The notes beneath the pieces are model-generated. The model was given only the letters and a program-made list of their open reading frames with translations. It had not been told where the DNA came from and ran no database searches. This document shows positions 1,884 to 60,829 of a stretch of 64,000 nt of DNA, piece after piece. The stretch covers positions 224,001 to 288,000 of the forward strand of contig CAWJGT010000009.1 in the NCBI GenBank assembly GCA_963842525.1, written 5' to 3'. The stretch's first letter is position 1; each line of letters starts with the position of its first letter. The position numbers were made by a program, and so were the translations under genes. This DNA is from an uncultured Holophagales bacterium (GTDB taxonomy: Bacteria > Acidobacteriota > Thermoanaerobaculia > Multivoradales > UBA5704).

Positions 1884-3566
1884 TCAGGCCTCGACCGGCA
1901 CCGCGCCTCCGCGCTCCCCCCGCAGCTTGAGCAGCGCCGAGAGCGCCAGATAAATGGCGAGCAGGATCAGCAGCAGGGCCGCCACGCCGTTGAGCAGCTC
2001 GATGTCGAAGCCCTTGGAGGCGTGGAGGTTGGCCCAGGTCAGCTTGCCCAGGGCCCAGAGGGTGATGGTGAGCACGAAGAGCATGGGGTAGAGGGTGAAG
2101 GCGATCCGCTTGCGGGCCTGGTGGAGCCAGACGGTGATGGAGAGCAGCGTCAGCGCCGCCAGGAGCTGGTTCGAGGCCCCGAAAAGGGTCCAGAATTTCT
2201 GCCACATCCCCTCGCCGGCAAAGGAGAGGAGGAGCGCCGGCGCGATCACCGTCACCGCCGTGGCCGCCACCGCGCCGGTCTTGCCCCGCCAGCCGAGAAG
2301 CTCCTGCAGGAGATAGCGGCCGAGCCGTGTCGAGACGTCCAGCGTGTCGAAGACGAAGGTGGAGAAGGCCATGGCGCCGAAGGTGATGGCGAAAGCCAGG
2401 TTCTCCCTGCCGACGAGCAAGGTCAGGAACTGCCCGATGCCGTTGCCGTAGATGGTGCCGGGCGTCAGGCCCTGGAGCTGGTCCTTGGTCATGATCATCA
2501 CGGTCACCAGGGCGATCAGGGCGACGAAACCCTCGGCGAGCATGGCGCCGTAGCCCACCGGACGGATGTGCGACTCCTTGTCGACCTGTTTGGAGGTGGT
2601 CCCCGAGCAGACCAGGCCGTGGAAGCCCGAGCAGGCGCCGCAGGCGATGGTCACGAAGAGGAAGGGGAAGAGGGTGCCGGTCATCCCGCCGACGTCCCAG
2701 CTCTTGAACGCCGGCTGCTGCACCTGGTAGCCGCCGAAGAAGATCCCGATCACCCCCAGGGCCAGGGCCGAGTAGAGGATGAACCCGCCCAGATAGCCGC
2801 GCGGCTGGAGGAGAATCCAGACCGGGATCATGGAAGCGATGCCGCAGTAGACGAGGATCAGGAGGCTCCAGCCCTTGACGTCGAGGAGGAGAAGGTCCGA
2901 GAGGTAGACCCCGGCCCAGGAGCAGGCGAAGCTCGCCGGCACGAAGATGAGGGTGACCAGCCAGAGCGGCGGCTTCCAGAGCTTCTGGACGACGCCCAGC
3001 ACGAAGGCCAGCAGGAGATAGAGGACGCTCGCCGCGGCCACGGCGCCGCCGGGGTGGAAGGAGACGCCTCCCGCGGCCTGCAGCTCCTCGGTGCCCACCA
3101 CGAAGCTGCGCGCGGTGATGTCGACGAAGGCCACGATCACGTAGATCAGGGCGATCCAGATGAAGGCCATCATGGCGAGCCCCGCCTTGCGCCCCAGGTG
3201 CTCGCCGGTGATCTCGGCGATCGAGCTGGCGCCGTGGCGCACCGAGGCGGTCAGGCTGGAGAAGTCGTGCACCGCGCCGATGAATACCACGCCGAGGCCG
3301 ACCCAGAGCAGGCAGGGGAGCCATCCGAAGGCCTGGCAGGCGATGATCGGGCCGGCGATCGGGCCGGCCGCGGCGATCGCCGAGAAGTGCTGGGCGAAGA
3401 GGTAGAAGGGAGCGGTGGGGACGAAGTCGACCCCGTCGTTGACCTTGTGCGCCGGCGTCACCCGGCTGTCATCGAGCGCGAACTGCCGCGCCACCCACCC
3501 GCCGTAGATCCGGTAGGCGGCGAACAGCAGGACCAGGAAACCGGTCGCGAGCAGGGGCAGATTCAT
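1884..3566 (-). CDS. cstA: Carbon starvation protein A family peptide/pyruvate transporter
   Basis: TPAH..NDGVDFVPT, HFSAIAAAGPIAGP, FVTIACGACSGFH, LFGASNQLLA. Confidence 0.95.
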   Translation of the reverse strand: MNLPLLATGFLVLLFAAYRIYGGWVARQFALDDSRVTPAHKVNDGVDFVPTAPFYLFAQHFSAIAAAGPIAGPIIACQAFGWLPCLLWVGLGVVFIGAVHDFSSLTASVRHGASSIAEITGEHLGRKAGLAMMAFIWIALIYVIVAFVDITARSFVVGTEELQAAGGVSFHPGGAVAAASVLYLLLAFVLGVVQKLWKPPLWLVTLIFVPASFACSWAGVYLSDLLLLDVKGWSLLILVYCGIASMIPVWILLQPRGYLGGFILYSALALGVIGIFFGGYQVQQPAFKSWDVGGMTGTLFPFLFVTIACGACSGFHGLVCSGTTSKQVDKESHIRPVGYGAMLAEGFVALIALVTVMIMTKDQLQGLTPGTIYGNGIGQFLTLLVGRENLAFAITFGAMAFSTFVFDTLDVSTRLGRYLLQELLGWRGKTGAVAATAVTVIAPALLLSFAGEGMWQKFWTLFGASNQLLAALTLLSITVWLHQARKRIAFTLYPMLFVLTITLWALGKLTWANLHASKGFDIELLNGVAALLLILLAIYLALSALLKLRGERGGAVPVEA

Positions 3567-5458
3567 GGCGGGGCGACCGCGGCTTCGCTGCGCCTTCCCA
3601 GCCAGAGGACGCCGCCGATGATGATCGCCGTGCCGAGCACCAGCGAGATCCAGGGAGAAAGGCCGTAGGCGGTGGGGATGTCGCCCACCAGCATGCCCAG
3701 GAGCCCGATGCTCAGGGCGTAGGGGAGCTGTGTGCGGACGTGGGCGATGTGGTCACACCCTGAGGCCATGCTGGAGAGGATGGTGGTATCCGAGATGGGG
3801 GAGCAGTGGTCGCCCCAGACGCTGCCCGCCAGCACCGAGGAGATGGTGCCCAGGAGCAGGACATAGTAGACCTCGCTCCCCACTGGATGGCCGCCGTCGA
3901 GCGAGAGCCCGTGGGAGATCGGGATGACCAGGGGCATGAGGATGCCCATGGTGCCCCAGGAGGTGCCGGTGGCGAAGGAGACCGCTGCCGAGACCAGGAA
4001 CACCAGCACCGGCAGGAAGTGCGGCGAGACCACCCCCCGCGTGAGGCTCACCACGTAGTCGGCGGTGTGGAGCTCGGTGCAGACGCCGCTGATGGACCAG
4101 GCGAGGGTGAGGACCACCACCGCGAGCAGCATGGCCTTGAAGCCTTCGAGCAGGGCCGCCACGGCCTCCTTGACGTCGATCAGGCGTTGCGAGAGAGGCA
4201 GGATGAGCGCGGCCAGCACCCCCGAGAGGCTCGCCCAGAGAAGGACGTCGAGCGACGACGCCTCCGAAAAGACGGCGCGGATCCAGGCGGTGAAGCTTGC
4301 GAAGCGCGCCCGGTCTAGGCCCGCCGCACCGGAGACGTAGAGGCCCACGATGGTCACCACGATAACGGTGAAGATGGGCAGGAGGGCGTTGCGCGACCGG
4401 TGGGGGATGCCGGCCCGGGGCGCCAGCCCGGAGCCGGAGAAGTCGCCGAGCGCCACGTGCTCGTCGGCGAGCACCTTGCCGGTGGCCGCGGCGCGCCGCT
4501 CGGCCGCCAGCATGGGGCCGAAGTCGCGGCCGCTCGCCGCGATGGCGAGGCCCAGCACGAGCGCAAACAGAGGATAGAAACGGAAGACGATGGAGCCGAT
4601 GAAGGCGCCGAACGCGTCATAGGGCAGCGACAGGGCCGAGAAGGCGGCGGTGATCAGCCCCACCTCGAAGCCGACCCAGGTCGACAGCGGCACGATGCTC
4701 GCCACCGGCGCCGCGGTGGAGTCGACGATGTAGGCGAGCTTCTCGCGGCTGATCCGCAGGCGGTCGGTGATCGGCCGCATGGTCGGCCCGACGATGAGGG
4801 TGTTGGCGTAGTCGTCGAAGAAGATCAGCAGGCCCATGAGCCAGGCGGCGAGCTGGCCCCGGCGGCTGGAGGTCGCCAGCGGGGTGAGCCTCTCGACGAT
4901 CCCCTGGCTGCCGCCGCTCCGGCTCATCACCCCGACCATCCCGCCGAGGAGGATGGTGAAGATGACGATCTTGGCGTGGTCGCCGTCTGCCAGAGCCGGC
5001 GCCACGAACTGGTCCGCCGAACGGGCGAAGGCGGTCCAGGGTACCCAGCCGTTGAGGGCGAGGGCGCCGACGAAGACGCCCGAGAAAAGCGCGATCAGGA
5101 CGTCCTTGAAGATCAGCGCCAGGCCGATCGCCACCAGCGGCGGGAGAAGAGAGATCCAGGCGGGCAGGGTGCGGATCGCGGCTTCAGCCCGGGAGCCGCC
5201 GGCCTCCAGGGCCAGGGTGTGGCGCCCCGAGGCCAGATCGGCCCCGGGCACGGCGAGGGGTTGGGTGCCGGGCACGAGGCTGACCTGGCTCACCTCGCGG
5301 CCGTCGACGAGGACGCGGCCTGCGAGCGCCTCGCCGGGAGCGAGGCCGGCGACTCCCACCTCGAGGTGGAGCGGCTGGCCCGAGAGCGAAGCGCCGTCCA
5401 GGCTCACCGTGAGCTCGGCAGCCTCCGCCCGCGAGCCGGCGGCCGCCACGAGCAGCAC
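3563..5458 (-). CDS. Na+/H+ antiporter NhaC-family transporter with N-terminal Ig-like extension (start uncertain)
   Basis: FFDDYANT, SREKLAYIVDSTAAP, FATGTSWGT, GDHCSPISDTTILSS. Confidence 0.9.
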   Translation of the reverse strand: MLLVAAAGSRAEAAELTVSLDGASLSGQPLHLEVGVAGLAPGEALAGRVLVDGREVSQVSLVPGTQPLAVPGADLASGRHTLALEAGGSRAEAAIRTLPAWISLLPPLVAIGLALIFKDVLIALFSGVFVGALALNGWVPWTAFARSADQFVAPALADGDHAKIVIFTILLGGMVGVMSRSGGSQGIVERLTPLATSSRRGQLAAWLMGLLIFFDDYANTLIVGPTMRPITDRLRISREKLAYIVDSTAAPVASIVPLSTWVGFEVGLITAAFSALSLPYDAFGAFIGSIVFRFYPLFALVLGLAIAASGRDFGPMLAAERRAAATGKVLADEHVALGDFSGSGLAPRAGIPHRSRNALLPIFTVIVVTIVGLYVSGAAGLDRARFASFTAWIRAVFSEASSLDVLLWASLSGVLAALILPLSQRLIDVKEAVAALLEGFKAMLLAVVVLTLAWSISGVCTELHTADYVVSLTRGVVSPHFLPVLVFLVSAAVSFATGTSWGTMGILMPLVIPISHGLSLDGGHPVGSEVYYVLLLGTISSVLAGSVWGDHCSPISDTTILSSMASGCDHIAHVRTQLPYALSIGLLGMLVGDIPTAYGLSPWISLVLGTAIIIGGVLWLGRRSEAAVAPP

Positions 5459-5622: not shown

Positions 5623-6916
5623 ATGGCCAAGCGCATCCCCCTGCACACGCGCATCCTGATTGGCGGCCTCCTGGGCGCGGTGGCCGGGATCGTGGCCCAT
5701 CTCGCCTTCGGGGACGACCCGGGCCTCGCGTCCTTCATCGCCTGGGTCACCGGCCCGATCGGACGGATCTTCCTCAACCTCCTCTTCATGCTGGTGATCC
5801 CGTTGCTCTTCTCGGCCCTGGTGCTGGGAGTGGCGGGCCTGGGAGACCCCCGGTCGCTGGGGCGGATCGGCCTCAAGGCCCTCGCCTATACCGTCGTCGT
5901 GTCGGCCATCGCCGTGCTGCTCGGCATCACCCTGGTCAACCTCTTCCGGCCGGGCGAGGCCATCTCCCCCGAGCTCAAGACGCGCCTGGAGGCGACAGCC
6001 GCGCAGCGCCTGGCCGGCCAGACCGCGGCGCCGGCCCCGAAAAGCGGGATCGACATGCTGGTCGACATCGTCCCGCGCAACCCCATCAAGTCCGCGGCGG
6101 ACGGCGACATGCTCGCCGTGATCTTCTTCTCCCTGTTCGTCGGCATCGGCCTGGCCCTCGTCCGCACCCCCGCCGCCCTGCGCTTCCAGGAGGCCCTCGA
6201 GGGGCTCCTCGACGTCAGCATGCGGCTGATCGGCCTGGTCATCGCCTTCGCCCCCATTGGGGTGGCCGCCCTGCTGTTCAATCTGACCGCCCAGCTCGGG
6301 TATGAGGTGCTGGGGCCGCTCGCCCGCTATGTCGGGGTCGTGCTGCTCGCCCTCGCCATCCACCAGTTCGTCGTCTACTCCCTGGCGGTCCGTTTCCTGG
6401 GCGGCATGAGCCCGCTCGCCTTCTTCCGCGGCATCCAGGAGGCGATGATCACGGCGTTCTCGACGGCGTCGAGCAACGCCACCCTGCCGACCGCCCTGCG
6501 GGTGGCCGAAGACGAGCTGCGGCTGCCGCCGAGCGTCAGCCGCTTCGTGCTGACCGTCGGGGCGACGATGAACCAGAACGGCACCGCCCTGTTCGAAGGG
6601 GTGACGGTGCTGTTCCTGGCCCAGTTCTACGGCGTCGAGCTCGAGCCTGGCGCAGCAGACCATGGTGGTGAGCATCTGCATCCTCGGCGGCGTCGGCACG
6701 GCCGGCGTCCCCGCCGGGTCGATCCCCGTGGTGGCCATGATCCTCGGCCTGGTCGGCATCCCGGCCGAGGGGATCGGCCTGATCCTCGGAGTCGACCGTT
6801 TTCTGGACATGTGCCGTACAGTCCTCAACGTCAGCGGGGACCTGGCGGCAGCAGTGGTGGTGTCGCGTGGCGAGGCAGGCACTGTGATCGCACCGGCGGT
6901 GGCGCCGGACATGTAA
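5623..6916 (+). CDS. Dicarboxylate/amino acid:cation symporter (GltP/DAACS), frameshifted near 6645
   Basis: FSTASSNATLP and GATMNQNGTALFE; the C-terminal GTAGVP..GVDRFLDM part is in ORF 6662-6916. Confidence 0.9.
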
Positions 6917-7066
6917 AACCGGGCAGGCATGGTTCCTGCTATTACCGAGAGCGTGGTTCCCCGGTGCGCCGGGGGCTCATCCTCCTTGGATCGTGAAGGA
7001 CATGCCGGCAGGACACCGGGAACCAAATCCGGGGTGTTCCCATCTAAGTGGCGGAGAGGTGACGAC

Positions 7067-7918
7067 ATGCACAGACCGTTTTCTATTCTTCTCGCCGTAC
7101 TCCTGATCGCCCCGGCCTTGGGGGGGTGCAACAAGGTCCAGGCGCGGGTCGAGATGAAGAAGGGCAACGCGCTGTATCAGCAGGAGGCCTATATTGCAGC
7201 ACTTGATCAATTCCAGAAGGGGCTCGAGCTGGACCCGAACGCCACTTTTGCCTGGCGTTCGGTGGGGCTGACGGCGCTCGCCCTCTACCGCCCCGGGGAT
7301 CCGGGCCCCAAGAACACCGGCTACAGCAAGACCGCCATCGAAGCCTTCGAGAAGTACCTGGTCGACTATCCGGATGACGAGAAGGTCCAGGACTACCTGA
7401 TGACCATGTACGTCAACGACAAGGACTACGACGAGGCGCTGGCCTTCCTCGACAAGCAGGCGCAGAACAGCGACGACCCGAACGATCCGAAGTTCGATAC
7501 CTCGCGGGTGCGCATCCTCCTGCAGTCGAACCGGACCGATCAGGCCTGGCAGCTCGCGCAGAAGCTGCCGGCGAGCCCGGCCAAGGCGGAAACGCTCTAT
7601 TCGATCGGCGTAGCGTCCTGGGACAAGTCGTACAACGACAAGAGCCTCGATCCGGTCACCCGCGAGCAGGTGGTCGACCGGGGGCTCAAGGCGACCGAGC
7701 AGGCTCTGCAAATCAGGCCGGAATATTTTGAAGCGATGGTCTATTACAACCTGCTCTACCGCGAAAAGGCGAAGATGCAGACGGACGTGGCGAAGCGGGA
7801 GGAGTACCTAGCGCAAGCCCAGGAGTGGGTCCAGAAGGCCACTGCGCTACGCAAAAAGCAGCAGGCGGAGGAGAAGGCAAAAGCCGCGGCCGAAGCGAAG
7901 GCCGCATCGGCAACCTAA
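7067..7918 (+). CDS. TPR lipoprotein
   Basis: Lipobox LGGC; TPR-like helices; first gene of the TonB cluster. Confidence 0.8.
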   Translation: MHRPFSILLAVLLIAPALGGCNKVQARVEMKKGNALYQQEAYIAALDQFQKGLELDPNATFAWRSVGLTALALYRPGDPGPKNTGYSKTAIEAFEKYLVDYPDDEKVQDYLMTMYVNDKDYDEALAFLDKQAQNSDDPNDPKFDTSRVRILLQSNRTDQAWQLAQKLPASPAKAETLYSIGVASWDKSYNDKSLDPVTREQVVDRGLKATEQALQIRPEYFEAMVYYNLLYREKAKMQTDVAKREEYLAQAQEWVQKATALRKKQQAEEKAKAAAEAKAASAT

Positions 7919-8744: not shown

Positions 8745-9425
8745 ATGGATTTTAGTATCGTCGGCATGTGGGAATCGATGACCATCATCGCCAAGTTGGT
8801 CGTCATTGTCCTCCTGATCCTTTCCGTCTGGTCGCTCTACATCGCCGTGGAGCGCGTCCTGACCTTCCGCAAAGCCGAGAAGCAGTCGCTGGCCTTCGCC
8901 AAGATCGCGACCGACCACCTCAAGCACGACCGGCCGCAGGCGGTGGTCGACAGCGCCATGAAGTACCCTGCCAGCCACCTGGCCCGCGTCGTCTCCGCCG
9001 GGTTGCAGGCGTACCAGTTCGAGGCGCAGACCAGCAATCTGTCGGACGAGGAAATCATCGAGGCCGCCAACCGCGCCGTCGAGCGCGCCAGCCTGCTGAC
9101 CCTCTCCGACTTCAAGAAAGGCACCGGTAGCCTGGCGACCATCGCCACCACCGCCCCCTTCATCGGCCTGTTCGGCACCGTGATCGGCATCATCAACGCC
9201 TTCCGCGGCATGTCCATGACCGGCTCGGCCGGTATCGGCGCGGTGGCGGGCGGTATCGCCGAGGCGCTCGTCGCCACGGCGATCGGTCTGTTCGTGGCCA
9301 TTCCCGCCGCCTGGATGTTCAACTACCTCCAGGGCCGCCTCGAGCGGCTCCAGGTCGAGATGAACAACTCCGGGTCGGAGCTCGTGGACTTTTTCGTGAA
9401 GAGACAGAAAAAGAATGCGGCATAA
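8745..9425 (+). CDS. exbB: MotA/TolQ/ExbB proton channel
   Basis: APFIGLFGTVIGI, GIAEALVATAIGL. Confidence 0.92.
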   Translation: MDFSIVGMWESMTIIAKLVVIVLLILSVWSLYIAVERVLTFRKAEKQSLAFAKIATDHLKHDRPQAVVDSAMKYPASHLARVVSAGLQAYQFEAQTSNLSDEEIIEAANRAVERASLLTLSDFKKGTGSLATIATTAPFIGLFGTVIGIINAFRGMSMTGSAGIGAVAGGIAEALVATAIGLFVAIPAAWMFNYLQGRLERLQVEMNNSGSELVDFFVKRQKKNAA

Positions 9426-49461: not shown

Positions 49462-49616
49462 GACTGTCTCCTTTTAAGTCGTCTCTGAAGAAGAAGTGCT
49501 TCACGATGTGCCATTGGGGACTTCAGGCAGAGCTTGGGCTCCTCCGCCTCTGATTGACAGCCCGAGCGCGCCGCCCGAGAATGGCTTCGGTTCCGTTAGC
49601 GAAAGGCCCATTGGGA

Positions 49617-50303
49617 ATGGACAAGCCCGTCGTTTTCATCAGCTCCACCTCGGACCTGTCCGAGGAGAGGAGAGCCCTGCTCGCCAGCCTGGGACCGCTC
49701 TATGAGCCGTATCTCTACGAGGAGGACCGGGCCCGGCGGGGCAGCCCGGAGGAGCGCTGCCGCGAGATGATCGAGAGCTCCCACGTGTTCGTGGGCGTCC
49801 TCGGCGCCACATACGGTACCCCGTTCCCGAGCGATCCGCAGCGCTCCATCGTCGAATGGGAGATCGATACGGCCCGCCGCTGCGAGAACGTGGAGATCAT
49901 GGCCTTCCTGAAGAAGCTGCCGCCCGGGGCCGAGGTCGACCCGCGTCAGAAGCAGCTTCTCGACCGGGTCACCGCCTTCGAGAGCGGCTTCTGGTGCAAG
50001 GCCTTCGAGTCGACGGACAGCTTGGTCCAGCTCGTCCGCAGCTCGCTGGAGGGCTGGCTCGTCGAGTTCTGGGGCCGGGTGCAACAACGGCAGCTCCGGG
50101 GGGCTCTCAGCCTCCACAAGATCCTGGCCGCGGTCGCGGCGGTGTTAGTCCTGGGCCTCGTCGTGCTCGCTGCGACTCCGCTGCGCTCTCAATTCACGGC
50201 CACGTCCCTGTTCGTCGCGAGCGGTGCGATCGCGGCGCTCGTCCTGCTCTGTATTGTCCTGCTGGTCGCCGAGACCGGAGGTCGCCATGGCCACACTGGA
50301 TAG
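49617..50303 (+). CDS. DUF4062-domain protein with two C-terminal TM helices
   Basis: VFISSTSDL.EER..FVGVLG..YGT..SIVEWE. Confidence 0.8.
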   Translation: MDKPVVFISSTSDLSEERRALLASLGPLYEPYLYEEDRARRGSPEERCREMIESSHVFVGVLGATYGTPFPSDPQRSIVEWEIDTARRCENVEIMAFLKKLPPGAEVDPRQKQLLDRVTAFESGFWCKAFESTDSLVQLVRSSLEGWLVEFWGRVQQRQLRGALSLHKILAAVAAVLVLGLVVLAATPLRSQFTATSLFVASGAIAALVLLCIVLLVAETGGRHGHTG

Positions 50304-50968: not shown

Positions 50969-53152
50969 TTATCGGACGTCCACGTCCTCGACAACCACCT
51001 CCTGCAGCGTCCGTTTGAAAAACTCTTCCATGCGCGCATAGAAGTGGGTGAGGGCAGGAGGGTTGACGGCGTGCTTCTGGCCCGGATAGAAGCCCTGCTC
51101 GAAGGGGATGCCGGCTTTTACCAGGGCGTCGGTCAACAGGATCGTGTTCTGCGGGTGGACGTTGTCGTCCGCCAGACCATGAATGAGCAGGAGCCGGTCC
51201 TTGATCCGGTCGGCATAGGTGAGGGGGGACGATTCGAGGTAGCCCGATTCGTTGTCCTGCGGGGTGTCGAGGTAGCGTTCGGTCCAGATCGAGTCGTAGA
51301 GGTGCCAGTCGGTCACCGGCGCGCCCGCGACGCCGGCTTTCCAGACGCCGGGGCGATGGATCAGGCAATACAGGGTGTTGTAGCCGCCGCCGGACCAGCC
51401 CCAGAGGCCGATCCGCGCGGGGTCGACCCAGGGGAGGCTCTTGAGGTAGTCGACCCCGGCGAGCTGGCCGGCGAGGTTGACCTCGCCCATCCGGCGGTAG
51501 TCCAGATCCTCCCCCTTCTTGCCGAAGAAGGTCGAGGCCTGGTTGTCGACGCTGAAGACCACGAAGCCGCGCTGAGCCATCCGCTTGTGCCAAAGGTCGC
51601 GCCGGCGGGTGTCCGGCTTGTCGGCCACGACCTGGGAGCCGGGGCCGCCGTAGTGGTAGACGATCACGGGGTAGCGGCGCGACGGATCGAACCCCTGCGG
51701 CTTGAGGAGCCGGGCGGGCAGGCGCGCGCCGCCGGGCCCGGGAATGGTCAGGTACTCCCAGTGCGGCAGGCTCGCCGGGTCGTATCTGGACGGCGGCACC
51801 CAGGGCAGGGGCACCGCGCTGCCGTCGGCCCGCCGCACCTCCAACCGGCCCGGGAGGTCTGCGCTGGTCCAGGTATGGACCCAGGCGCCGGTCGGAGCCA
51901 CCGGCTGTGCCTCATGGGTGCCCTTCCCTTGCGTGAGGCTCTCCCAACGGTCCTCCCCGAGCCGGGCGCGCAGGACATGGCGCTCGGCGGGGCCCAGGCC
52001 CTGGGTCCGGAAGGCCGTGAGGATCACCTCGCCGCCGTCCCCGGCCAGGCCGCCGAGCCCGGTGACGGCCCAGCCTTCGGGGGAGACCTGACGCAGCAGG
52101 CGGCCGTCGGCGCCGTAGAAGTAGAGCGCCCGCCAGCCGCTCCGTTCGGAGCCCCAGAGGAACCGGCCGTCGGGGAGGAAGAGGAGGTCGTTCGCCAGGT
52201 TCACCCAGGTCGGCCAGCTCTCAGTGGCGAGGGGCGAGCAGCGGCCGTCCGTGGCGGCGCAGCGGAGGAGGTCGAGCCGGGTCTGGCTGCGCGTGAGCGC
52301 CTGGATGGCCAGGGCGTCTCCGGCGGGCGTCCAGGCCACCCGCGCCAGGTATTGGTCCTGGTCGCCGGTCGACATCCAGGTGGTCCGGCCGCTGGCGAGG
52401 TCGAGCACTCCGACGCGCACCCTGGGATTGGGATCGCCCGGCTTGGGGAATTTCTGCCAGTTGACCTTCGGATGGAGCGGCGATTCGTCGACCAGGGGGT
52501 GGACGGGGACGTCGCGCTCGTCGAACTCGTAGTAGGCGATCCGCCGGCTGTCGGGGCTCCACCAGAAGCCGGTGGCTTCGCGGTCCCAGATCTCCTCCCA
52601 ATAGACCCAATCGGTCGTGCCGTTCAGGGTCAGGTTCTTTGCGCCGCCTTCGGTGAGGCGCCGCACCTGGCGTGTTCCGAGGTCCATCAGATAAAGGTCA
52701 TACTCGCGCACGAAGGCGACCTGCGTGCCGTCGGGCGAGAGCTTCGGGTCCTCCTCGGCCTCGGCGGTCTCGGTCAGCCGCCGGAGCCGGCGGTCGGCCA
52801 GCGGGAAGAGGAAGAGGTCGCCGCTCGACTCCAGCAGCAGCGCGTCTCCCTGGGGGGACCAGGCGTAGCCGTCGAGCGTGGCCTCCGCGCCCGCGGCCTT
52901 GGCAAGATCGGCCAGGGACAGCAGGGCCTCGCTCTGGCCCGTGGCGGGGTCGAGGGCCTGGAGGGCCTCACCGCGGCCGTCGTCCCAGAGGTAGGTGAGC
53001 CGCCGGCCGTCCGGCGACCAGGCAATCTGGCCGGGAGAGCGGCCTGCCCAGTCGGCAGAGGCGATCGCGTCGTAGGAGAGCGCGGCTTGGCCAGCGCCCG
53101 CGGCGGGGACGAGGAGACCGAGCAAGAGCGGGAGAAGGAGGGCGGAACGCAT
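50969..53152 (-). CDS. S9B dipeptidyl-peptidase IV
   Basis: DWVYWEE, GWSGGG, DDNVH, catalytic His. Confidence 0.93.
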   Translation of the reverse strand: MRSALLLPLLLGLLVPAAGAGQAALSYDAIASADWAGRSPGQIAWSPDGRRLTYLWDDGRGEALQALDPATGQSEALLSLADLAKAAGAEATLDGYAWSPQGDALLLESSGDLFLFPLADRRLRRLTETAEAEEDPKLSPDGTQVAFVREYDLYLMDLGTRQVRRLTEGGAKNLTLNGTTDWVYWEEIWDREATGFWWSPDSRRIAYYEFDERDVPVHPLVDESPLHPKVNWQKFPKPGDPNPRVRVGVLDLASGRTTWMSTGDQDQYLARVAWTPAGDALAIQALTRSQTRLDLLRCAATDGRCSPLATESWPTWVNLANDLLFLPDGRFLWGSERSGWRALYFYGADGRLLRQVSPEGWAVTGLGGLAGDGGEVILTAFRTQGLGPAERHVLRARLGEDRWESLTQGKGTHEAQPVAPTGAWVHTWTSADLPGRLEVRRADGSAVPLPWVPPSRYDPASLPHWEYLTIPGPGGARLPARLLKPQGFDPSRRYPVIVYHYGGPGSQVVADKPDTRRRDLWHKRMAQRGFVVFSVDNQASTFFGKKGEDLDYRRMGEVNLAGQLAGVDYLKSLPWVDPARIGLWGWSGGGYNTLYCLIHRPGVWKAGVAGAPVTDWHLYDSIWTERYLDTPQDNESGYLESSPLTYADRIKDRLLLIHGLADDNVHPQNTILLTDALVKAGIPFEQGFYPGQKHAVNPPALTHFYARMEEFFKRTLQEVVVEDVDVR

Positions 53153-53230
53153 GGCGCGGAGTCTACTATTCTGGAGTTGCAACCTTGGCGTTGCAGCGCT
53201 CGTAGTGGGGACACGATGGAGGGACACGCC

Positions 53231-54433
53231 ATGAAACCACAAAGACCTGCCGCGCTGCTCGCGGCTTCGCTGCTCCTGACCGGCGCGCTGGCCGCCGTTG
53301 CCGAGACTCCAACCAAGACGCGGGCCTTGCGCCACGCCTTTCCCGCAAAGACCGCCGAGCTGCGGCTCGCCAACCTGGCCGGCCGGATCGAGCTGGTCCG
53401 CGCGCCGGGAAACCAGGTGGTGGTCGACGCCACGATCCACGCCGCCGGCGACAACGCCCGCGAGACCAAGGAGCTGCTCGACGGCATGAAGTGGGTGCGC
53501 GGCGAGGACCGGGACGGCAACGACGAGTGGGTGCTCTCCTACCCTGTCGACGACTACCGCGGCTTCCACTACCCCCGGCCCGGCAAGGATTCGGACATCC
53601 CCGAATTCCTCCGCTTCCTCGACTTCGGCGGGTACTCCACCACGTTCTATCGCGGCGAGAACGTCCGCATCTACCGGGAGAAGCGCTCGTCGGTTCCCAC
53701 TCTCTACGCCAATCTGCGGATCGCGCTGCCGGCCGGAAGCCACGTCGCGGTGCGCAACGCCGTGGGCGCGGTGCGCGCGGACGGGCCGCTCGAAGGGGAC
53801 CTGCAGGTGAGGACCGGCAGCGGCGACGTCCGGATGGCCGCGTTCTCCGGCCAGTTGGGGGTCCGCACCGGCTCGGGCGACGTCACCATGGGCTCGGTCA
53901 CGGGCGAGAGCTCGATCGCCACCGGCTCGGGCGATGTGGTCGTCCGCAAGATGGTGGGCAACGGCTCGCTGGACACCGGCTCGGGCGACGTTACAGTCGA
54001 GAGCGTCTCGGCCGGCAAGCTGGCGGTGGACACCGGCTCGGGCGACGTGGTGGTGCGCAACGGCACGACCGGCCGGCTGCTGGCCAAGACCGGCTCGGGC
54101 AGCGTGCAACTGCTCGGCGTGGAGGTCCAGGAGCTGGACGCCAAGACCGGCTCGGGTGACGTGGTCCTCCGCAGCTCGCTCGCCCAGGCCAAAGAGGTGG
54201 TCGCCCGCACGGGCAGCGGCGACATCGAAATCTTCGCGGGCCCGCAGGCCTCGTTTGACATCACATCGTCCCAGGGGAGCGGCGACCTCGAGGTGGGCTA
54301 TCGGGACGCCAACCTGCGCCGCTCCTCGTCGGGCCGCAAGGTCATCGGTGCCAAGCGCGGCGACGGCCGCACGGTGATCCGCCTCCAGACCGGCAGCGGG
54401 GACTGCGTGATCACCCCGCGGCAGTCCTCCTAA
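53231..54433 (+). CDS. DUF4097 beta-strand-repeat secreted protein
   Basis: Many TGSGDV repeats; signal peptide. Confidence 0.88.
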   Translation: MKPQRPAALLAASLLLTGALAAVAETPTKTRALRHAFPAKTAELRLANLAGRIELVRAPGNQVVVDATIHAAGDNARETKELLDGMKWVRGEDRDGNDEWVLSYPVDDYRGFHYPRPGKDSDIPEFLRFLDFGGYSTTFYRGENVRIYREKRSSVPTLYANLRIALPAGSHVAVRNAVGAVRADGPLEGDLQVRTGSGDVRMAAFSGQLGVRTGSGDVTMGSVTGESSIATGSGDVVVRKMVGNGSLDTGSGDVTVESVSAGKLAVDTGSGDVVVRNGTTGRLLAKTGSGSVQLLGVEVQELDAKTGSGDVVLRSSLAQAKEVVARTGSGDIEIFAGPQASFDITSSQGSGDLEVGYRDANLRRSSSGRKVIGAKRGDGRTVIRLQTGSGDCVITPRQSS

Positions 54434-54704: not shown

Positions 54705-56387
54705 TTACATCTTGCTGTAGTTCGGCCCGCCGCCGCCCTCGGGGGGGACCCAGGTGATGATCCCGTACGGGTCCATGATGTCGCAGGTTTTGCAGTGCAC
54801 GCAGTTGCTGGCGTTGATCTGCAGCCGCTGGCCCGTGGGCGAGGCCGGCTCGGGCACCATCTCGTAGACCGAGGCCGGGCAGAAGCGCTGGCAGGGGTTG
54901 GCGTATTCGACCGCGCACTGGTAGATGCAGATGTCGGTGTCCGCGACCAGCAGGTGGACCGGCTGGTCCTCCTCGTGCGCGGTCCCCGAGTTGTAGACGT
55001 CCGCCAGCTTGTCGAAGGTGAGCACGCCGTCGGGCTTGACCGGCTCGGGCGGCTTGAGCTTCTGTCCTTCGGGGCTGTTCAGCCGGACCATCCGCTCGTG
55101 GCCGGGCCGGGTCTGCAGGCGGTCGAGGGCTCCCCAGCCGCGGCCGTTCGTCACCAGGCCGAGGCCCGCCTGGACCATGCCGGCCGCGACCCCGTGGTCG
55201 AAGGCCTGGTGGAAGTTGCGCACCTGCCAGAGCTCGTCCTTGATCCAGCTCTCGTCGATCTTCTGCTCGAAGCGGGACAACCGCTCGGCCGTGGCGCCGC
55301 CGGCCACCAGCGCCTCGAAGATCGTCTCGGCGGCGAGCATCCCGGACTTCATGCCGAGGTGGATTCCCTTGAGGCGCTGGCTGTTGAGCGTCCCCGCCGA
55401 GTCGCCGATGATCAGGAAGCCGTCGCCCCAGGAGCGCGGCATCGCCCACCAGCCGCCCTCGGGGATCGCCTTGGCGCCATAGAACGCCATCCGTCCGCCT
55501 TCGAGGAGGCTGCGGATCTCGGGATGGGTCTTGAAGCGCTGGAATTCCTGGTGCGGGTCGAGCAGCGGGTTGCGGTAGTCCAGGCCGACGACCAGGCCGA
55601 CGACGAGCTGGTCATTCTGCATGCCGTAGAGGAAGCCGCCGCCGAAGATGTGCATGTCGAGCGGCCAGCCCATGGTGTGGATCACGTCGCCCGCCGCGAT
55701 CCGTCCCGGCGGGAGGTCCCAGACCTCCTTGATGCCGATCGAGTAGACCTGCGGGTTCTTCCCCTCCCAGAGGCCCAGGTCCGCGTCGAGCTGCTTGACC
55801 AGGGTGCCGCGGGGACCTTCGCCGAGCACCACCACCTGCGAGCGGATGTCGACCCCCGGCTCGTAGTTGGCCTTCTTCTCGCCGGTATGCGAGATGCCGC
55901 GGTCCGCGGTGCGGACGCCGACCACCCGGCCGTTCTCGACCAGCGCGCGGGAGGCGGGAAACTCGTAGAAGATGTCGACCCCCAGCTCCTCGACCCGCGG
56001 GACCATCCACTTGAGGAGCTTGCCGAGCGAGGCGACGTAGTTGCCCTCGTTCTCGAGCGGCGGCGGGATGGGCATGCCGAAGGCCCGTTTGCCGGTGAGG
56101 AACAGGAGCTTCTCGTGCTCGACCTTGCCCTCGTACGGAGCGTTGCGCCAGTCGTCGGGGAACAGCTCGCGGAGGGCGCGCGGGTCCACCACGGCGCCGG
56201 AGAGGGCGTGGCTGCCGATCTCGCGGCCCTTCTCCAGGACCCCGATCGAGACCTCCAGCTTCGCGGCGGATTTTGCATTGTGATCGCGGATTAGGCGCGC
56301 GAGGTGATAGGCCCCGGCCAGGCTGGCCGGTCCGGCGCCGACGAAGAGGACATCGATGTCCAGAGTTTCGCGTTCCTGGTCGCTCAT
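54705..56387 (-). CDS. Electron transfer flavoprotein-ubiquinone oxidoreductase
   Basis: VGAGPA, H.LSGA, KGIH.GMKSG, CPA.VYE, NCVHCKTCDI. Confidence 0.95.
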   Translation of the reverse strand: MSDQERETLDIDVLFVGAGPASLAGAYHLARLIRDHNAKSAAKLEVSIGVLEKGREIGSHALSGAVVDPRALRELFPDDWRNAPYEGKVEHEKLLFLTGKRAFGMPIPPPLENEGNYVASLGKLLKWMVPRVEELGVDIFYEFPASRALVENGRVVGVRTADRGISHTGEKKANYEPGVDIRSQVVVLGEGPRGTLVKQLDADLGLWEGKNPQVYSIGIKEVWDLPPGRIAAGDVIHTMGWPLDMHIFGGGFLYGMQNDQLVVGLVVGLDYRNPLLDPHQEFQRFKTHPEIRSLLEGGRMAFYGAKAIPEGGWWAMPRSWGDGFLIIGDSAGTLNSQRLKGIHLGMKSGMLAAETIFEALVAGGATAERLSRFEQKIDESWIKDELWQVRNFHQAFDHGVAAGMVQAGLGLVTNGRGWGALDRLQTRPGHERMVRLNSPEGQKLKPPEPVKPDGVLTFDKLADVYNSGTAHEEDQPVHLLVADTDICIYQCAVEYANPCQRFCPASVYEMVPEPASPTGQRLQINASNCVHCKTCDIMDPYGIITWVPPEGGGGPNYSKM

Positions 56388-56747
56388 GCGGCTCGGCTCC
56401 TCCCGTTCCTGCATCTCATGTCATCGAGCGCAGGGGATGCTACCATGCGGAAGGCCCGTGCAAGGAATCCGGCCGCGGGTTTCGACCCCGACGGTCAAAA
56501 AGAGGAGCCTTCATGCTCCCTCGCCCGCCTCGATGCACTCGCCGCCACGGCCGGCCTCGTCTGCGGGGCGGAGCAGGGCCTCGATGCCGGCATCCACAAC
56601 CGCTGGCACATCCGGACCTACGCCATGGGAAGCCGCACCGCCGTCCGCGAGGCACCCCTGGCCCGGGATCCTCAGGGCTTCATCGACGAGTGGCTCGCCC
56701 GCAGCCGAACCGCATTTGATAAGCTCGCGCCCTGACTGAGTCGGCAC

Positions 56748-56763
56748 CGCCCTCATAGGATAG
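56748..56763 (+). repeat. 16-bp direct repeat CGCCCTCATAGGATAG, left copy
   Basis: Identical to 60814-60829. Confidence 0.9.
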
Positions 56764-56886
56764 TTTCTATTCAGACATGGGCTCATACTGGGAGTATCGG
56801 AATGTCTTCGACAAACGTCGGCTCCAAGCCGAATCTCACGCCGACTGAGAAAACTGTCCTCAGGGTCATGTCAGAAGCTCCAGGAG

Positions 56887-58686
56887 ATGTTCGGCGAGCT
56901 CGTCATCAACGAGCAAAGGAGTGAGCTGGTTCGAGAGCTGGATTCTGCGATCCTGCGATCCACCTTCTCGCCGCAGGAAGTCTTTGAGCTTATCATTGAG
57001 AATTGCTTGTCCCGTACAGACTCGCAGCATGGGCAGGTGCTTCTATACAAGCACAATCGCCTGGTGGTGGCTGCGAGCTCGGAGCCGAGCCGTATCGGCG
57101 AGGAGCTGTTTCTCCATAACTCTTTGTGCGGCAAGGCCATCCGCGAGAGATCCGATCAACACTATCCGGACGTTTCCGTGATACCACCGAGCTCTTACGC
57201 TCGGTATCACGACGAGACAAAAAGCGAGCTCGTCGTCCTTATCCAGCCAGCCAACGTAGGCAGGGTCCTCGGTGTGCTGGCTTTGGAGCGCGAAGCGCTC
57301 GGTCCATTCCCAGCAACGGCGCGCGACTTCGCCAAGCTCCTTGCTGGCCAGGCAGCCATTGCCATCCAGCATGCCCGCACGTGGTCCGGCGTAAAGACCC
57401 TATATGACCTCAGCACCGCGCTGGTTGCAGGTACTGTGGAGCTTGAGCAGAGTGGTCAGGAAATCCTCAATGCTCTGCTGGACAACTTCGACTTTGAATA
57501 CGGCCAGATTCTAGGCTTCGAGAGTAATGAGTTTGTTATCATCGCGAGCAGCCGTAGGGGCGACATTGGACTTCGTCCTGGCCGGGACTCGTCACTGTGC
57601 GGCCACTATCTATTAGCCGAGGGTAAGCGGGATATCTTGGTCATCAATGATATTGAGCGGTCGGAGTACAAAGATCTTTACCTGGCTCTGCTCGGGGCGG
57701 AGGGCGAACGTATGAAGAGCGAGATGATCATACCGCTCGTCGACAATTCGGGTCGACTCACAGGGGCGTTGAACATTGAAAGCCCTCAGGTCGGGATTTT
57801 CTCAGATTTTGATGTAAGTTTGTTCGGCGTGGTCGGACACCTTTTGGCCGCTGCAATCTCGGCCACGTTTGCCCGTCGTAAACGAGCGAAAGAGGAGCAA
57901 ATAAAGAGGGCGGATCTAGCTATGACGCACCTCGGCAATGTCGCCCAGTCGTTTCTTCATCGATTTGGCAGTAGCGTTGGCGACGCTAAAGGGCGGATGC
58001 TCGAGCTCAGGCAGCATTTGGAAGGGCGAGATTTGCCGAAATTGCGACGAAAAGAGCTCAGCGTGGTTGATTTCATAGGCGACATCGTGGAGAGCCTCGG
58101 CGAGGCCAAGGTGGTGGTGGATGACTTCAGCAACCGGTTCGATCCACAATTGGTCGACTTCCAGTTCCAGGACATCGATCTCGCGGCGGTCGGTAGAGAG
58201 CTCTTGGAGAAGTACCAGCAAAGGTATGCCGATACTGGGATCGAATTTCGTTTCGATGACCAGATGCCGTCAGTCGACAAAAATGGCCGGATGAGTGTCG
58301 GCAGCCGTGCTGTGTGTCGGTTGACTGAGAAGGTATACGACGTTATCGAAAATCTTTTGGATAATGCCGTGCGAGCCGTGGTGGAGCGGCCTGCGGTGGA
58401 CAGGCCCGGCGAGATCGCCATAATCCTCTCCCTCAGCGCTGCCCTCAGCGCGCGCCTGCGGGTGCAAGACAACGGAGTCGGTATCGACGCGGCAGAGCGG
58501 CGAAAGATTTTCGAGTTCGGTTACAGCACTCGCAAGAGCGGAGGCACTTCGCTTGGTATAGGACTTTGGTTCTGCGAGTACTACACTCTTCAGCTCGGAG
58601 GGAAGATCACCTTCGATTCGGAGAGAGGGTCAGGTTCGTGGTTCGAGATCGAGTTCCCTACGATTGCCATAGAGGCTGAAGCCTGA
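56887..58686 (+). CDS. Cytoplasmic GAF-GAF histidine kinase (true start possibly 56802 with a 1-nt indel)
   Basis: Two GAF domains; H-box SFLHRF; NLLDNA, DNGVGI, IFEFGYST, GIGL. Confidence 0.88.
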   Translation: MFGELVINEQRSELVRELDSAILRSTFSPQEVFELIIENCLSRTDSQHGQVLLYKHNRLVVAASSEPSRIGEELFLHNSLCGKAIRERSDQHYPDVSVIPPSSYARYHDETKSELVVLIQPANVGRVLGVLALEREALGPFPATARDFAKLLAGQAAIAIQHARTWSGVKTLYDLSTALVAGTVELEQSGQEILNALLDNFDFEYGQILGFESNEFVIIASSRRGDIGLRPGRDSSLCGHYLLAEGKRDILVINDIERSEYKDLYLALLGAEGERMKSEMIIPLVDNSGRLTGALNIESPQVGIFSDFDVSLFGVVGHLLAAAISATFARRKRAKEEQIKRADLAMTHLGNVAQSFLHRFGSSVGDAKGRMLELRQHLEGRDLPKLRRKELSVVDFIGDIVESLGEAKVVVDDFSNRFDPQLVDFQFQDIDLAAVGRELLEKYQQRYADTGIEFRFDDQMPSVDKNGRMSVGSRAVCRLTEKVYDVIENLLDNAVRAVVERPAVDRPGEIAIILSLSAALSARLRVQDNGVGIDAAERRKIFEFGYSTRKSGGTSLGIGLWFCEYYTLQLGGKITFDSERGSGSWFEIEFPTIAIEAEA

Positions 58687-58703
58687 GGCACAGGAGGAAG
58701 AGC

Positions 58704-59519
58704 ATGAAGGCGCGCATTCTTGTGGTCGAAGACGAGGAGCGGTGGCTGGAGAACTTCCAGGAGTGGATACCGGAGGATCTGGCTTCCCAGGACTCCGCTT
58801 CATCCTCGATCGAGGCTGCCAGGCTGCTGCGCAGGTTTCATTACGACCTTGTGCTGCTCGATTTGTCGATGGACGTTACCAATATCTCCAATCGGGATAC
58901 CCGTCCGATTCAGGAGTATCTTGCACGGCGGCCCGAGGGGACGCTGTACATTGTGATCTCGGCAACAGCGCAGAAGCACGACGTTCGTGACGCGGCGTTC
59001 AGGCTTGGGGCATGGGACGTCATCTTCAAAACTGAAGCTGAGCCGGCTGTTCTCAGGGAGAGGGTGGCGGCAGCGGTGGCAGACACTGGTCGACATCATG
59101 AGCAATGGATCATCGAGGCCAGGACAAAGTTGATCAAGGATCACGTGCATGACGGCCAGATCCTCAGCGCTCTGCAGCCACGTGGGGGAGCATCCAGCAT
59201 GTACGGCCTCATGGATGCCCTGTTTCGCGCCATCGCTCCGATCGGACAGCATCGCGACAGGCTGCACTTCGCCGTCACAGGCCAATGCGTGTGCGGTCTG
59301 GTATGGAGCCGCCTTCGGGGGGCAGCGGTTTCCTTCGTCCTTGCGAATCGCAGCATAGAGGAAGAGGCCGCGCTGGCAGAGCTCGCGGACTGGATGGGGT
59401 TTGCGGAGCGGGGCGAGCGCCTGATCTCTCGAGAGCTGCACCGAGTTCGTATATGGGGATTCGAGGAGACGAGCATCACGGATTCCCACTTCGACCTTCC
59501 TGACATCCGGGTCGCTTGA
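58704..59519 (+). CDS. Response regulator: receiver + unrecognised C-terminal domain
   Basis: ILVVEDE, LLDL, ISA, FK; no HTH recognised. Confidence 0.85.
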   Translation: MKARILVVEDEERWLENFQEWIPEDLASQDSASSSIEAARLLRRFHYDLVLLDLSMDVTNISNRDTRPIQEYLARRPEGTLYIVISATAQKHDVRDAAFRLGAWDVIFKTEAEPAVLRERVAAAVADTGRHHEQWIIEARTKLIKDHVHDGQILSALQPRGGASSMYGLMDALFRAIAPIGQHRDRLHFAVTGQCVCGLVWSRLRGAAVSFVLANRSIEEEAALAELADWMGFAERGERLISRELHRVRIWGFEETSITDSHFDLPDIRVA

Positions 59520-60637
59520 GTGGCACGATGGAGTTGCCGATCGACCTGATCCGTGCGTTCAAGCTGGTAGGCGGTGAGGGTGTGGTGGCTTTCGTTGGAT
59601 CTGGCCCCTCGTGCGATGCCGGCGTCCCGAATTGGTCGGATCTGATCCGGTGCGTCGCAGTTGACGTCGGTCTCGATGCCGAGATCTCTCCATATTTGTC
59701 GACGGGGCGCCTGCTGGAAGCGGCACAGTTTCTCAGTCGCTCGAGGTCGGAGGAGGACATCCAGGAGAGGGTAGCGAAGGAGATTCAACGGACCGCCCGG
59801 CCGGGACGTGTCCACGAGCTCATCGTTGGCGCGCCCTTTTCGGGCATCGTGACCACAAATTACGACTTGCTGCTGAGCATGGCCGATCGAGCTCGAAAGT
59901 TTGACGTTCCGACGACCCATCAGAGCGTCACCGTTCGCGACCACCTTCATCGCCCATTCGTTCTCCATCTCCATGGGCATGTGAATGAGCCAAGGACGAT
60001 CGTGCTCAGTCGTAGCGGCTATGACCAGATCGTCGCCCCGGCAGGAGCGCCAGCCCGGCAGTTCTTGTATAGCACCCTGGGATCGTTTACGCTGCTCTTT
60101 ATCGGATTCGGGTTTCGAGACCCAAATATCGACGCCATCCTCAGGGAGGGCAGCGAGTTGAGCACAATCGGCGGGTCTAGCGTCTTTGCTCTAGTGCCGT
60201 CGGGCCCGAAGATTGATCATGTGCTCGATGCCAACCTAAGAACGAGGAAAGTCAATCCAATCTATATCGAAGATCGGGGCGATCACGGCACGCAAGCACT
60301 TTGCGAGTGGCTGGAAAGCCTGACACGGGCAGTCGAGAGGGTCACCTTGTCGCGTCAGTCGCCGGTGCGGAACGCCAAGCCGGCCGAGTTGCTGCAGAGG
60401 ATTCAGTCGCTGTTGCAATCAGGTGACTGGAGGCTTGTCCTCGCGAAGGCTGTGGCGGAACTGGAAAACCGCCCGGATTTGCAGAATCTTGCGCGCAAGG
60501 GATTCACCAATGAAGACATCCCAAGATTGTTCGATCAGATGTCGATCGGCGAGACACGGAGGATTTTGATGTCAGTGAATCGAGAGCGCAGGAATGAGGT
60601 GGTGGAGGATGCCCTCTCCTGCTTTCCGCCCGGGTGA
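59516..60637 (+). CDS. SIR2-like (SIR2_2) NADase-type protein
   Basis: FVGSGPS..PNW, TTNYD, LHLHG, LFIGFGFRDPNI. Confidence 0.88.
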   Translation: MSGTMELPIDLIRAFKLVGGEGVVAFVGSGPSCDAGVPNWSDLIRCVAVDVGLDAEISPYLSTGRLLEAAQFLSRSRSEEDIQERVAKEIQRTARPGRVHELIVGAPFSGIVTTNYDLLLSMADRARKFDVPTTHQSVTVRDHLHRPFVLHLHGHVNEPRTIVLSRSGYDQIVAPAGAPARQFLYSTLGSFTLLFIGFGFRDPNIDAILREGSELSTIGGSSVFALVPSGPKIDHVLDANLRTRKVNPIYIEDRGDHGTQALCEWLESLTRAVERVTLSRQSPVRNAKPAELLQRIQSLLQSGDWRLVLAKAVAELENRPDLQNLARKGFTNEDIPRLFDQMSIGETRRILMSVNRERRNEVVEDALSCFPPG

Positions 60638-60813: not shown

Positions 60814-60829
60814 CGCCCTCATAGGATAG
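60814..60829 (+). repeat. 16-bp direct repeat, right copy (contains a TAGGAT -10 of tdh)
   Basis: Identical to 56748-56763. Confidence 0.9.

Follow-up and report, generated by a model that had tools for sequence, protein, structure and literature searches.

Organization of the three-gene cassette

The 64,000-nt stretch of DNA from an uncultured Holophagales bacterium analysed here (the window; contig CAWJGT010000009.1, positions 224,001 to 288,000) carries, at window positions 56887-60637, three tightly packed open reading frames (ORFs) on the + strand, which encode a sensor histidine kinase (HK), a response regulator (RR) and a SIR2_2 protein (Table 1). We consider the chance somewhat better than even that this cassette is a self-contained module of three genes, acquired horizontally, that acts in defence as a two-component system whose effector consumes NAD+. 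An earlier reading of the window, made from the letters alone (the sequence-only reading), had proposed such a coupling of a phosphorelay to SIR2 and had begun the kinase region at 56802; the ATG there proved to be out of frame, the kinase starts at 56887, and homologues align from its residue 1. It had also let the SIR2 gene overlap the RR gene. An overlap, of 4 nt, needs the TTG at 59516, but homologues and the database gene call start at the ATG at 59528, which is most likely the true start. This ATG lies 8 nt past the RR stop, suggesting that SIR2 is co-transcribed with RR, whose own gene is preceded by an AGGAGG Shine-Dalgarno sequence. A scan for promoters and terminators gave nothing exceeding the expectation from shuffled sequences, and no sigma-70-like site was found in the leader. 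The GC content of the cassette is 0.579 over about 4 kb, compared with 0.691 and 0.670 in the flanks, which bears out the atypical composition noted by the sequence-only reading.

The HK matched the Pfam families GAF_2 (E = 2.2e-24, two stretches), GAF and HATPase_c (6.5e-18), so that the chain can be divided into GAF1 (residues ~28-161), GAF2 (~186-324), a DHp part with H358 (codon 57958-57960) and HATPase_c (482-591); it appears to be soluble, no transmembrane or periplasmic part being recognizable from Pfam. The Pfam HisKA model was unmatched, suggesting that the DHp is divergent. A motif script located all of the H, N, G1, F and G2 boxes that had been read earlier in this soluble GAF-GAF kinase, at FLHRFG (356-361, including H358), ENLLDNAV (488-495), DNGVGI (528-533), FEFGYST (542-548) and GIGLWF (557-562), and the boxes were invariant in the orthologue alignments: H358 within an FLHxFG..GD box, N493, DNGxGI and GxGL were retained in seven of the seven kinases aligned. 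In addition, an S-x-C-G cysteine is invariant in each GAF domain of the seven kinases (HK residues 79-84 and 236-241; window 57121-57138 and 57592-57609) and may represent a ligand-attachment or redox-sensing residue.

The RR matched Response_reg in Pfam (1e-10, residues 5-118). Within its REC part (residues 1-112), D10, D53 (codon 58860-58862), S86 and K109 were all invariant in 19 of 19 RRs, and the REC fold superimposed on that of KdpE (Z 18.3; root-mean-square deviation, rmsd, 2.0 A over 123 residues). The model of the whole chain (predicted local distance difference test, pLDDT, 90.7) comprises REC, a linker helix of 30 residues (114-143) and an alpha/beta domain (147-255; nt 59142-59468), and the alignment revealed conserved residues P179, H183, R186, W201-S-R, G206, W230, G232 and F263-x-L-P in the C-terminal part. 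Past residue 118 there were no Pfam matches, and neither a helix-turn-helix (HTH) nor any other DNA-binding family was found, in keeping with the earlier description of a phospho-Asp receiver with a non-HTH C-terminal domain. The profile of the C-terminal domain had no match in Pfam or among PDB sequences, and an Atlas feature search with residues 135-271 yielded no usable match. Structure searches (Foldseek against the PDB, VIA-align wide and BFVD) used the full-length chain, and the REC domain filled each list; because they returned solely receiver matches, with RssB first, the C-terminal fold is without assignment.

RssB of Escherichia coli, whose output domain is PP2C-like and which delivers RpoS to ClpXP, was also the best NCBIfam match of RR (1.2e-11, residues 3-159). 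Its layout of a receiver, a long helical linker and a C-terminal domain that contacts protein rather than DNA is the one predicted for RR; however, the similarity was confined to REC and linker, with a whole-chain rmsd of 14-18 A and no demonstrated homology of the C-terminal domains. The profile of the RR C-terminal domain recovered 38 proteins among 1.84 billion representatives, of which 28 fall in the REC-plus-domain size class (262-288 aa), nine are shorter and probably fragments, and one is longer (P0110, 439 aa). The domain is thus confined almost wholly to the REC-plus-domain architecture. We propose that it is previously undescribed and serves as a dedicated docking domain, in a regulator predicted to have no DNA-binding output.

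The SIR2 protein, whose residues are numbered here from the TTG at 59516, matched SIR2_2 (PF13289) in Pfam at 2.4e-22, with 80 bits against a gathering cut-off of 24.5. The script located GSGPS (28-32), TTNYD (113-117; N115, codon 59858-59860) and HLHGH (151-155; H153, codon 59972-59974); the GSGxS, TTNYD and HxHG motifs, including N115, D117, H151 and H153, were invariant in 20 of 20 SIR2s, and the TTNYD and HxHG residues aligned with the ThsA motifs in a profile search of the PDB. The best PADLOC match was ThsA (5.8e-32), followed by the LmuA and Dsr1/2 models, and the PDB profile search gave ThsA (3.6e-31), KomC (4.6e-24) and DSR2 (6.8e-19), which were also the top Foldseek matches (KomC E 7e-12, TM-score 0.76 on the target). 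The model (pLDDT 86) has a ThsA/KomC/DSR2-like core followed by an all-helical tail (259-368), for which no Pfam family or PDB sequence match was found, and the C-terminal peptide ending in EDALSCFPP (residues 348-372, nt 60557-60631) is conserved. Apart from the overlap with RR, the earlier picture of a SIR2_2 protein with TTNYD and HG motifs and a helical tail of ~100 aa therefore stands. By these comparisons the nearest relatives of the SIR2 domain are NADases of defence systems (ThsA, KomC and DSR2), and the protein is a putative NADase. Human FAM118B (PDB 9r0p, 9r3e) also matched the SIR2 profile (7e-13).

Conservation and co-divergence of the triad

A scan with the SIR2 alignment across 185,579 species, each represented by a single genome, found 80 loci, six of which (L001-L006) encode full-length orthologues at 41-63% identity. 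Four of the six are from Acidobacteriota, one is from Bacillota (Heliomicrobium) and one from Planctomycetota (Pirellulales). At all six, the HK, RR and SIR2 genes follow one another as in the window and are separated, or overlap, by no more than a few nucleotides, so that the conservation of the triad, by which the sequence-only reading had wished its proposal to be judged, extends across three phyla; HK and RR orthologues adjoined SIR2 at none of the 74 distant SIR2 loci. The pairwise identities of HK, RR and SIR2 were correlated (r = 0.78, 0.76 and 0.57; 21 locus pairs from seven loci), and, at the level of sequence, the three cassette proteins diverge together.

Among the matches listed in a metagenome scan with the RR alignment, one was a full-length locus, L087, which duplicates L002; L096 and L098, also from metagenomes, match RR residues 2-198 at 26-28%. 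In a large protein collection we found 18 full-length RR relatives and 47 SIR2 relatives at E <=3e-48, and for nine of the 18 RR relatives the longest contig was equal in size to one of a SIR2 relative, which is indirect evidence of linkage. The cassette was present in one of 401 genomes sampled from the phylum of the window (the window's own genome) and in one of 401 sampled from the phylum of L001, and is very rare.

Predicted coupling of the response regulator to its effector

Three runs of complex prediction paired SIR2 with RR at a score of 0.85, whereas the best of three controls scored 0.00; the pLDDT of the partner was 87-88 and contact agreement was at least 97%. This agrees with the action of RR on SIR2 that the sequence-only reading had put forward. 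Of 80 solved complexes, 58 came up to this mark, as did two of 110 mismatched pairs, counts that are only rough because our own alignments were used. We know of no similar complex, and a pass through the memory of the model is therefore unlikely. In the predicted interface, the last 25 residues of SIR2 (348-372) lie on the RR C-terminal domain, including the invariant H183, R186, W230 and G232.

Two relatives of RR, P0110 and the 51%-identical P0122 (437 aa), are REC-domain-TIR_2 fusions, suggesting that the same regulator has been wired covalently to another NAD+-consuming immune effector. Both retain the receiver residues, H183 and WSR, whereas R186 and W230-x-G232 are replaced, as would be expected if those residues hold a separate SIR2 tail. 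Three further proteins, P0129, P0142 and P0155 (284-306 aa), consist of Response_reg and TIR_2 without the docking domain, which indicates that the joining of receivers to TIR has taken more than one form. Taken together, the triad, its co-divergence, the predicted binding and the REC-domain-TIR fusions make the coupling of the phosphorelay to SIR2 well supported in silico.

These data also bear on the possibility that RR is a transcription factor with an unrecognized DNA-binding domain, governs the expression of SIR2 or other genes and is not coupled to SIR2 at the protein level. Response regulators are for the most part transcription factors, the fold left without assignment is that of the C-terminal domain, and the Ambrosia two-component system is proposed to control expression in this way (10.1101/2025.09.30.679545). 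We regard this explanation as very improbable, since the family searches of RR described above returned no DNA-binding candidate, SIR2 follows so closely that it would be co-transcribed with its supposed regulator, the RR-SIR2 interface is predicted on invariant residues, and two relatives carry TIR joined to the domain in a single chain.

Mobility and insertion site

The sequence-only reading had placed the genes within a direct-repeat island, and an exact 16-mer, CGCCCTCATAGGATAG, indeed stands at both ends of the cassette. Exact copies number two in the 9.95-Mb genome, both bracketing the cassette (blastn-short E 2e-4) and sitting at points of composition change; with up to two mismatches there were three copies, compared with six for the reversed control pattern. 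Flanking direct repeats at E < 1e-3 were present in four of the seven loci, with lengths of 16, 31, 38 and 208 nt and differing sequences, and none were seen at L002 and L005. The GC content of the cassette was below that of the flanks in the window and at all six orthologue loci. There is no recombinase gene inside the cassette, and repeats without an internal recombinase suggest that a circular intermediate was inserted, in the Campbell manner, at short stretches of homology.

Table 1. Coordinates of the cassette and of flanking repeats (window positions, or positions within the named locus)
Feature	Position	Strand	Basis or remark
Left direct repeat copy CGCCCTCATAGGATAG	56748-56763		Exact 16-mer; GC drop starts at this copy
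Low-GC leader 5' of kinase gene, presumed promoter region	56764-56886	+	Sequence
Sensor histidine kinase, 599 aa	56887-58686	+	Pfam, motif script
Response regulator, 271 aa	58704-59519	+	Pfam, alignments, model
SIR2_2 protein, 369 aa (ATG 59528) or 373 aa (TTG 59516)	59528-60637	+	Pfam, PADLOC, model
Right direct repeat copy CGCCCTCATAGGATAG	60814-60829		7 nt 5' of epimerase ATG (60837)
L006 repeat, 208 nt, 86%	150-355, 4263-4470		Duplicates 3' end of upstream ORF
L004 repeat, 38 nt, 87%	5026-5063, 9152-9189		
L003 repeat, 31 nt, 87%	251-281, 4544-4574		
L001 repeat, 13 nt exact	4839-4851, 9175-9187		

The ETF-QO and epimerase/aminotransferase flanks are conserved in same-order relatives at 67-85% DNA identity; the cassette was found in none of 30 such relatives, among which nothing matched the 4.3 kb between the flanks. 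In a genome of the same genus, G004, a 352-aa gene (L082:456-1514, - strand), which by its sequence seems to resemble an EgtD-type S-adenosylmethionine methyltransferase, lies between ETF-QO and the epimerase in the place of the cassette, and ATAGGATAG stands directly 5' of the epimerase start in both this and the window genome. The presence of another gene in G004, together with ATAGGATAG before the epimerase, shows that the site is variable and marks the right-hand repeat as the resident copy. The cassette is a horizontally moving unit. The 330 nt from the ETF-QO start to the left repeat contain short overlapping ORFs (56356-56739; 56415-56735, +; 56513-56719), none of which had a family match.

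Could the SIR2 gene be a stand-alone defence gene that lies beside an unrelated, ordinary two-component pair by chance? Orphan two-component systems are common, and so are SIR2 defence genes that stand alone. We nevertheless rejected chance adjacency, which has next to no likelihood, because the triad is kept at six of six loci in three phyla, its proteins diverge together, the three genes share one GC-deviant unit bounded by repeats, and binding is predicted. A toxin-antitoxin-like addiction module, in which the RR C-terminal domain would hold a SIR2 toxin inactive and the kinase would tune its release, with stabilization of the mobile cassette and not immunity as the main role, fits the tight predicted interface, the translational coupling by which RR is made ahead of SIR2, and the behaviour of the cassette as a mobile unit. 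However, a 599-aa double-GAF kinase with all catalytic boxes conserved would be costly for addiction alone, and the TIR fusions unite the supposed antitoxin with its effector in one polypeptide. We consider an addiction module distinctly unlikely, and it would in any case overlap largely with abortive-infection defence.

Proposed mechanism and genomic context

Several features speak for a conflict system: SIR2 has been exchanged for TIR, the composition is foreign, the distribution across phyla is sporadic and the core is ThsA-like. In the defensive reading, the cytoplasmic GAF-GAF kinase would sense an intracellular cue, presumably a phage-induced molecule or state, autophosphorylate at H358 and pass the phosphate to D53 of RR, the C-terminal docking domain of which would hold the conserved C-terminal tail of SIR2. 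The phosphorylated receiver may then dimerize through the long linker helix, and dimerization would alter how the tethered SIR2 assembles, switching on a ThsA-like NADase, so that NAD+ would be depleted and the infection aborted. We infer activation by phosphorylation-driven assembly because ThsA and KomC are helical assemblies, to judge from PDB titles; we likewise infer what triggers the system, which way phosphorylation acts, that SIR2 is active as an NADase and that the cassette has a defence phenotype. That the cassette founds a new family of defensive two-component systems, in which an RR adaptor domain grips the tail of a SIR2 NADase or is fused to TIR, a double-GAF kinase turns an infection signal into NAD+ depletion, and the genes spread naked between phyla at short homologies without a recombinase of their own, seems to us slightly short of an even chance.

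Several observations weigh against a role in defence or against particular parts of this scheme. The genes next to the cassette in the window encode ETF-QO, an epimerase and an aminotransferase, all of housekeeping type, and the nearest genes in L001-L006 encode NadC, UbiD, alanine racemase, DnaB, DUF711 and gluconolactonase. PADLOC gave no specific match for 10 ORFs of the window (12.7 kb upstream and 3.2 kb downstream, ETF-QO excluded), and a pooled scan of 52 flank ORFs of L001-L006 gave generic matches only (subtilase, mad3/mad8, AriA and methyltransferase). No defence-island context was therefore found at the window or the six loci, seven loci being too few for an enrichment analysis; of the defence assignment sought by PADLOC, the ThsA match of SIR2 was obtained and specific defence neighbours were not. 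No RR relative was found in viral contigs, no sequencing run from RNA was listed, a single soil-metagenome DNA run containing 37% of the words, and SIR2 linkage was not shown for the other nine of the 18 RR relatives, which had short contigs or no equal-sized partner listed. The SIR2-RR score, moreover, is the confidence of a model in a predicted complex and would be overread if taken as measured binding, and activation by phosphorylation is a direction borrowed by analogy from Detocs. A function in defence is accordingly worded here as a putative one.

The housekeeping neighbours at all seven loci and the lack of a defence island would suit a physiological signalling module, in which the GAF kinase would sense a metabolite or redox state and RR would recruit or release SIR2 as a protein deacylase, an ADP-ribosyltransferase or an enzyme that tunes NAD+ under regulation. 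GAF domains usually bind small metabolites, and the invariant SxCG cysteine could mean redox sensing. On the other hand, SIR2 is nearest to ThsA, KomC and DSR2 and not to deacetylase sirtuins, the distribution is extremely sporadic, the GC content is foreign, repeats flank the cassette, and the replacement of SIR2 by a TIR effector is what conflict systems typically show. We judge a physiological module to be rather unlikely and keep the defensive two-component reading as the working one.

Relation to known defence systems

Detocs is a defensive two-component system in which a His-Asp relay gates abortive-infection effectors that are swapped between variants (bioRxiv 10.1101/2023.01.24.525353); it consists of the kinase DtcA, the buffer receiver DtcB and the receiver-effector DtcC (Rousset et al., bioRxiv 10.1101/2023.01.24.525353). 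The likeness lies in the use of a His-Asp relay as a direct anti-phage switch instead of for transcription, which we propose for the cassette as well, in an effector that degrades an essential nucleotide cofactor, as SIR2 is predicted to do, in exchangeable effector domains and in the three-gene operon. However, the sensor of DtcA is TPR, whereas the N-terminus of the cassette kinase is GAF-GAF; DtcB is a stand-alone buffer receiver, whereas the cassette had no fourth gene at any of the seven loci; and the PNP effector (ATP) is fused in DtcC, whereas the cassette SIR2 (NAD+) is a separate protein that is predicted to be docked. A fused state like that of DtcC was seen only in the TIR variants P0110 and P0122. 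Membership of Detocs was thus rejected for want of a TPR sensor, a DtcB and a fused effector. PADLOC returned nothing for the kinase even at E values up to 10, although the presence of Detocs models in that library is uncertain. At L004, a lone REC gene lies ~1 kb downstream of the cassette on the opposite strand.

Thoeris shares with the cassette the homologous SIR2 domain of ThsA, with TTNYD and HxHG(D/H)V motifs in common, and provides the closest solved structures. ThsA, however, ends in a SLOG domain, whereas the tail of the cassette SIR2 is all-helical and without a family match; only HK, RR and SIR2 lie between the repeats, with no ThsB/TIR gene; and activation of the cassette would use a phosphorylated protein partner, not glycocyclic ADP-ribose (gcADPR). 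Membership of Thoeris was rejected, both SLOG and an adjacent ThsB being absent. KomC of KomBC (PDB 8zsf, 9xvc) is a short SIR2-only NADase whose activity, as proposed for the cassette SIR2, depends on a separate partner protein. By PDB titles, however, that partner is a HAM1-type protein with dITP; kinase and receiver are lacking, and KomC is without the 110-aa helical tail.

Ambrosia (bioRxiv 10.1101/2025.09.30.679545) also has a HATPase kinase and a REC protein inside a defence operon; its REC protein, however, has a winged HTH and is proposed to control the transcription of restriction-modification-like genes, with no NADase. The described defence systems with two-component parts are Detocs and Ambrosia. 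The sequence-only reading had known of no defence system triggered by a His-Asp relay, which is corrected by Detocs. Full-text literature searches found no description of a histidine kinase and receiver pair that controls a SIR2 or TIR effector, a SIR2 variant in Detocs Table S5 being possible. The elements that appear new in the cassette are the GAF-GAF sensor, the docking domain, the SIR2 acting in trans and the fused TIR alternative.

If the defensive reading is right, the Detocs logic of two-component signalling would extend to NAD+-depleting effectors, and there would be a second way of wiring receiver to effector, in which a docking domain grips the tail of a separately encoded enzyme and takes the place of a fusion. 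The H183/R186/W230 surface of the RR domain and the SIR2 tail may thus represent a portable protein-protein switch, and the soluble GAF-GAF sensor raises the question of which intracellular molecule reports infection. A repeat-flanked cassette without an integrase also offers a small case study of the movement of defence-like modules between phyla.

Other genes near the cassettes

Among the flank ORFs of the window, one had a marginal match to DruC (E 0.00099), with no single stretch passing, and one matched SspA/DndA, which we read as a generic cysteine desulfurase. Further upstream, a DUF4062 protein is encoded in a stretch of slightly lower GC (49554-50303, +) and adjoins the gene for a 1129-aa protein with a terminal DUF4097 'toastrack' domain (51044-54433, +); neither protein had a PADLOC match. 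At L001, one of the six loci, the gene for quinolinate phosphoribosyltransferase NadC, an enzyme of NAD synthesis, lies 1 kb 5' of the cassette (3378-4424, -), and its proximity is probably a coincidence. At L006, a gene for a 201-aa protein with a RelA_SpoT domain, resembling small alarmone synthetases, lies 2.4 kb 3' of the cassette (6669-7274, +), past two ORFs without family matches.

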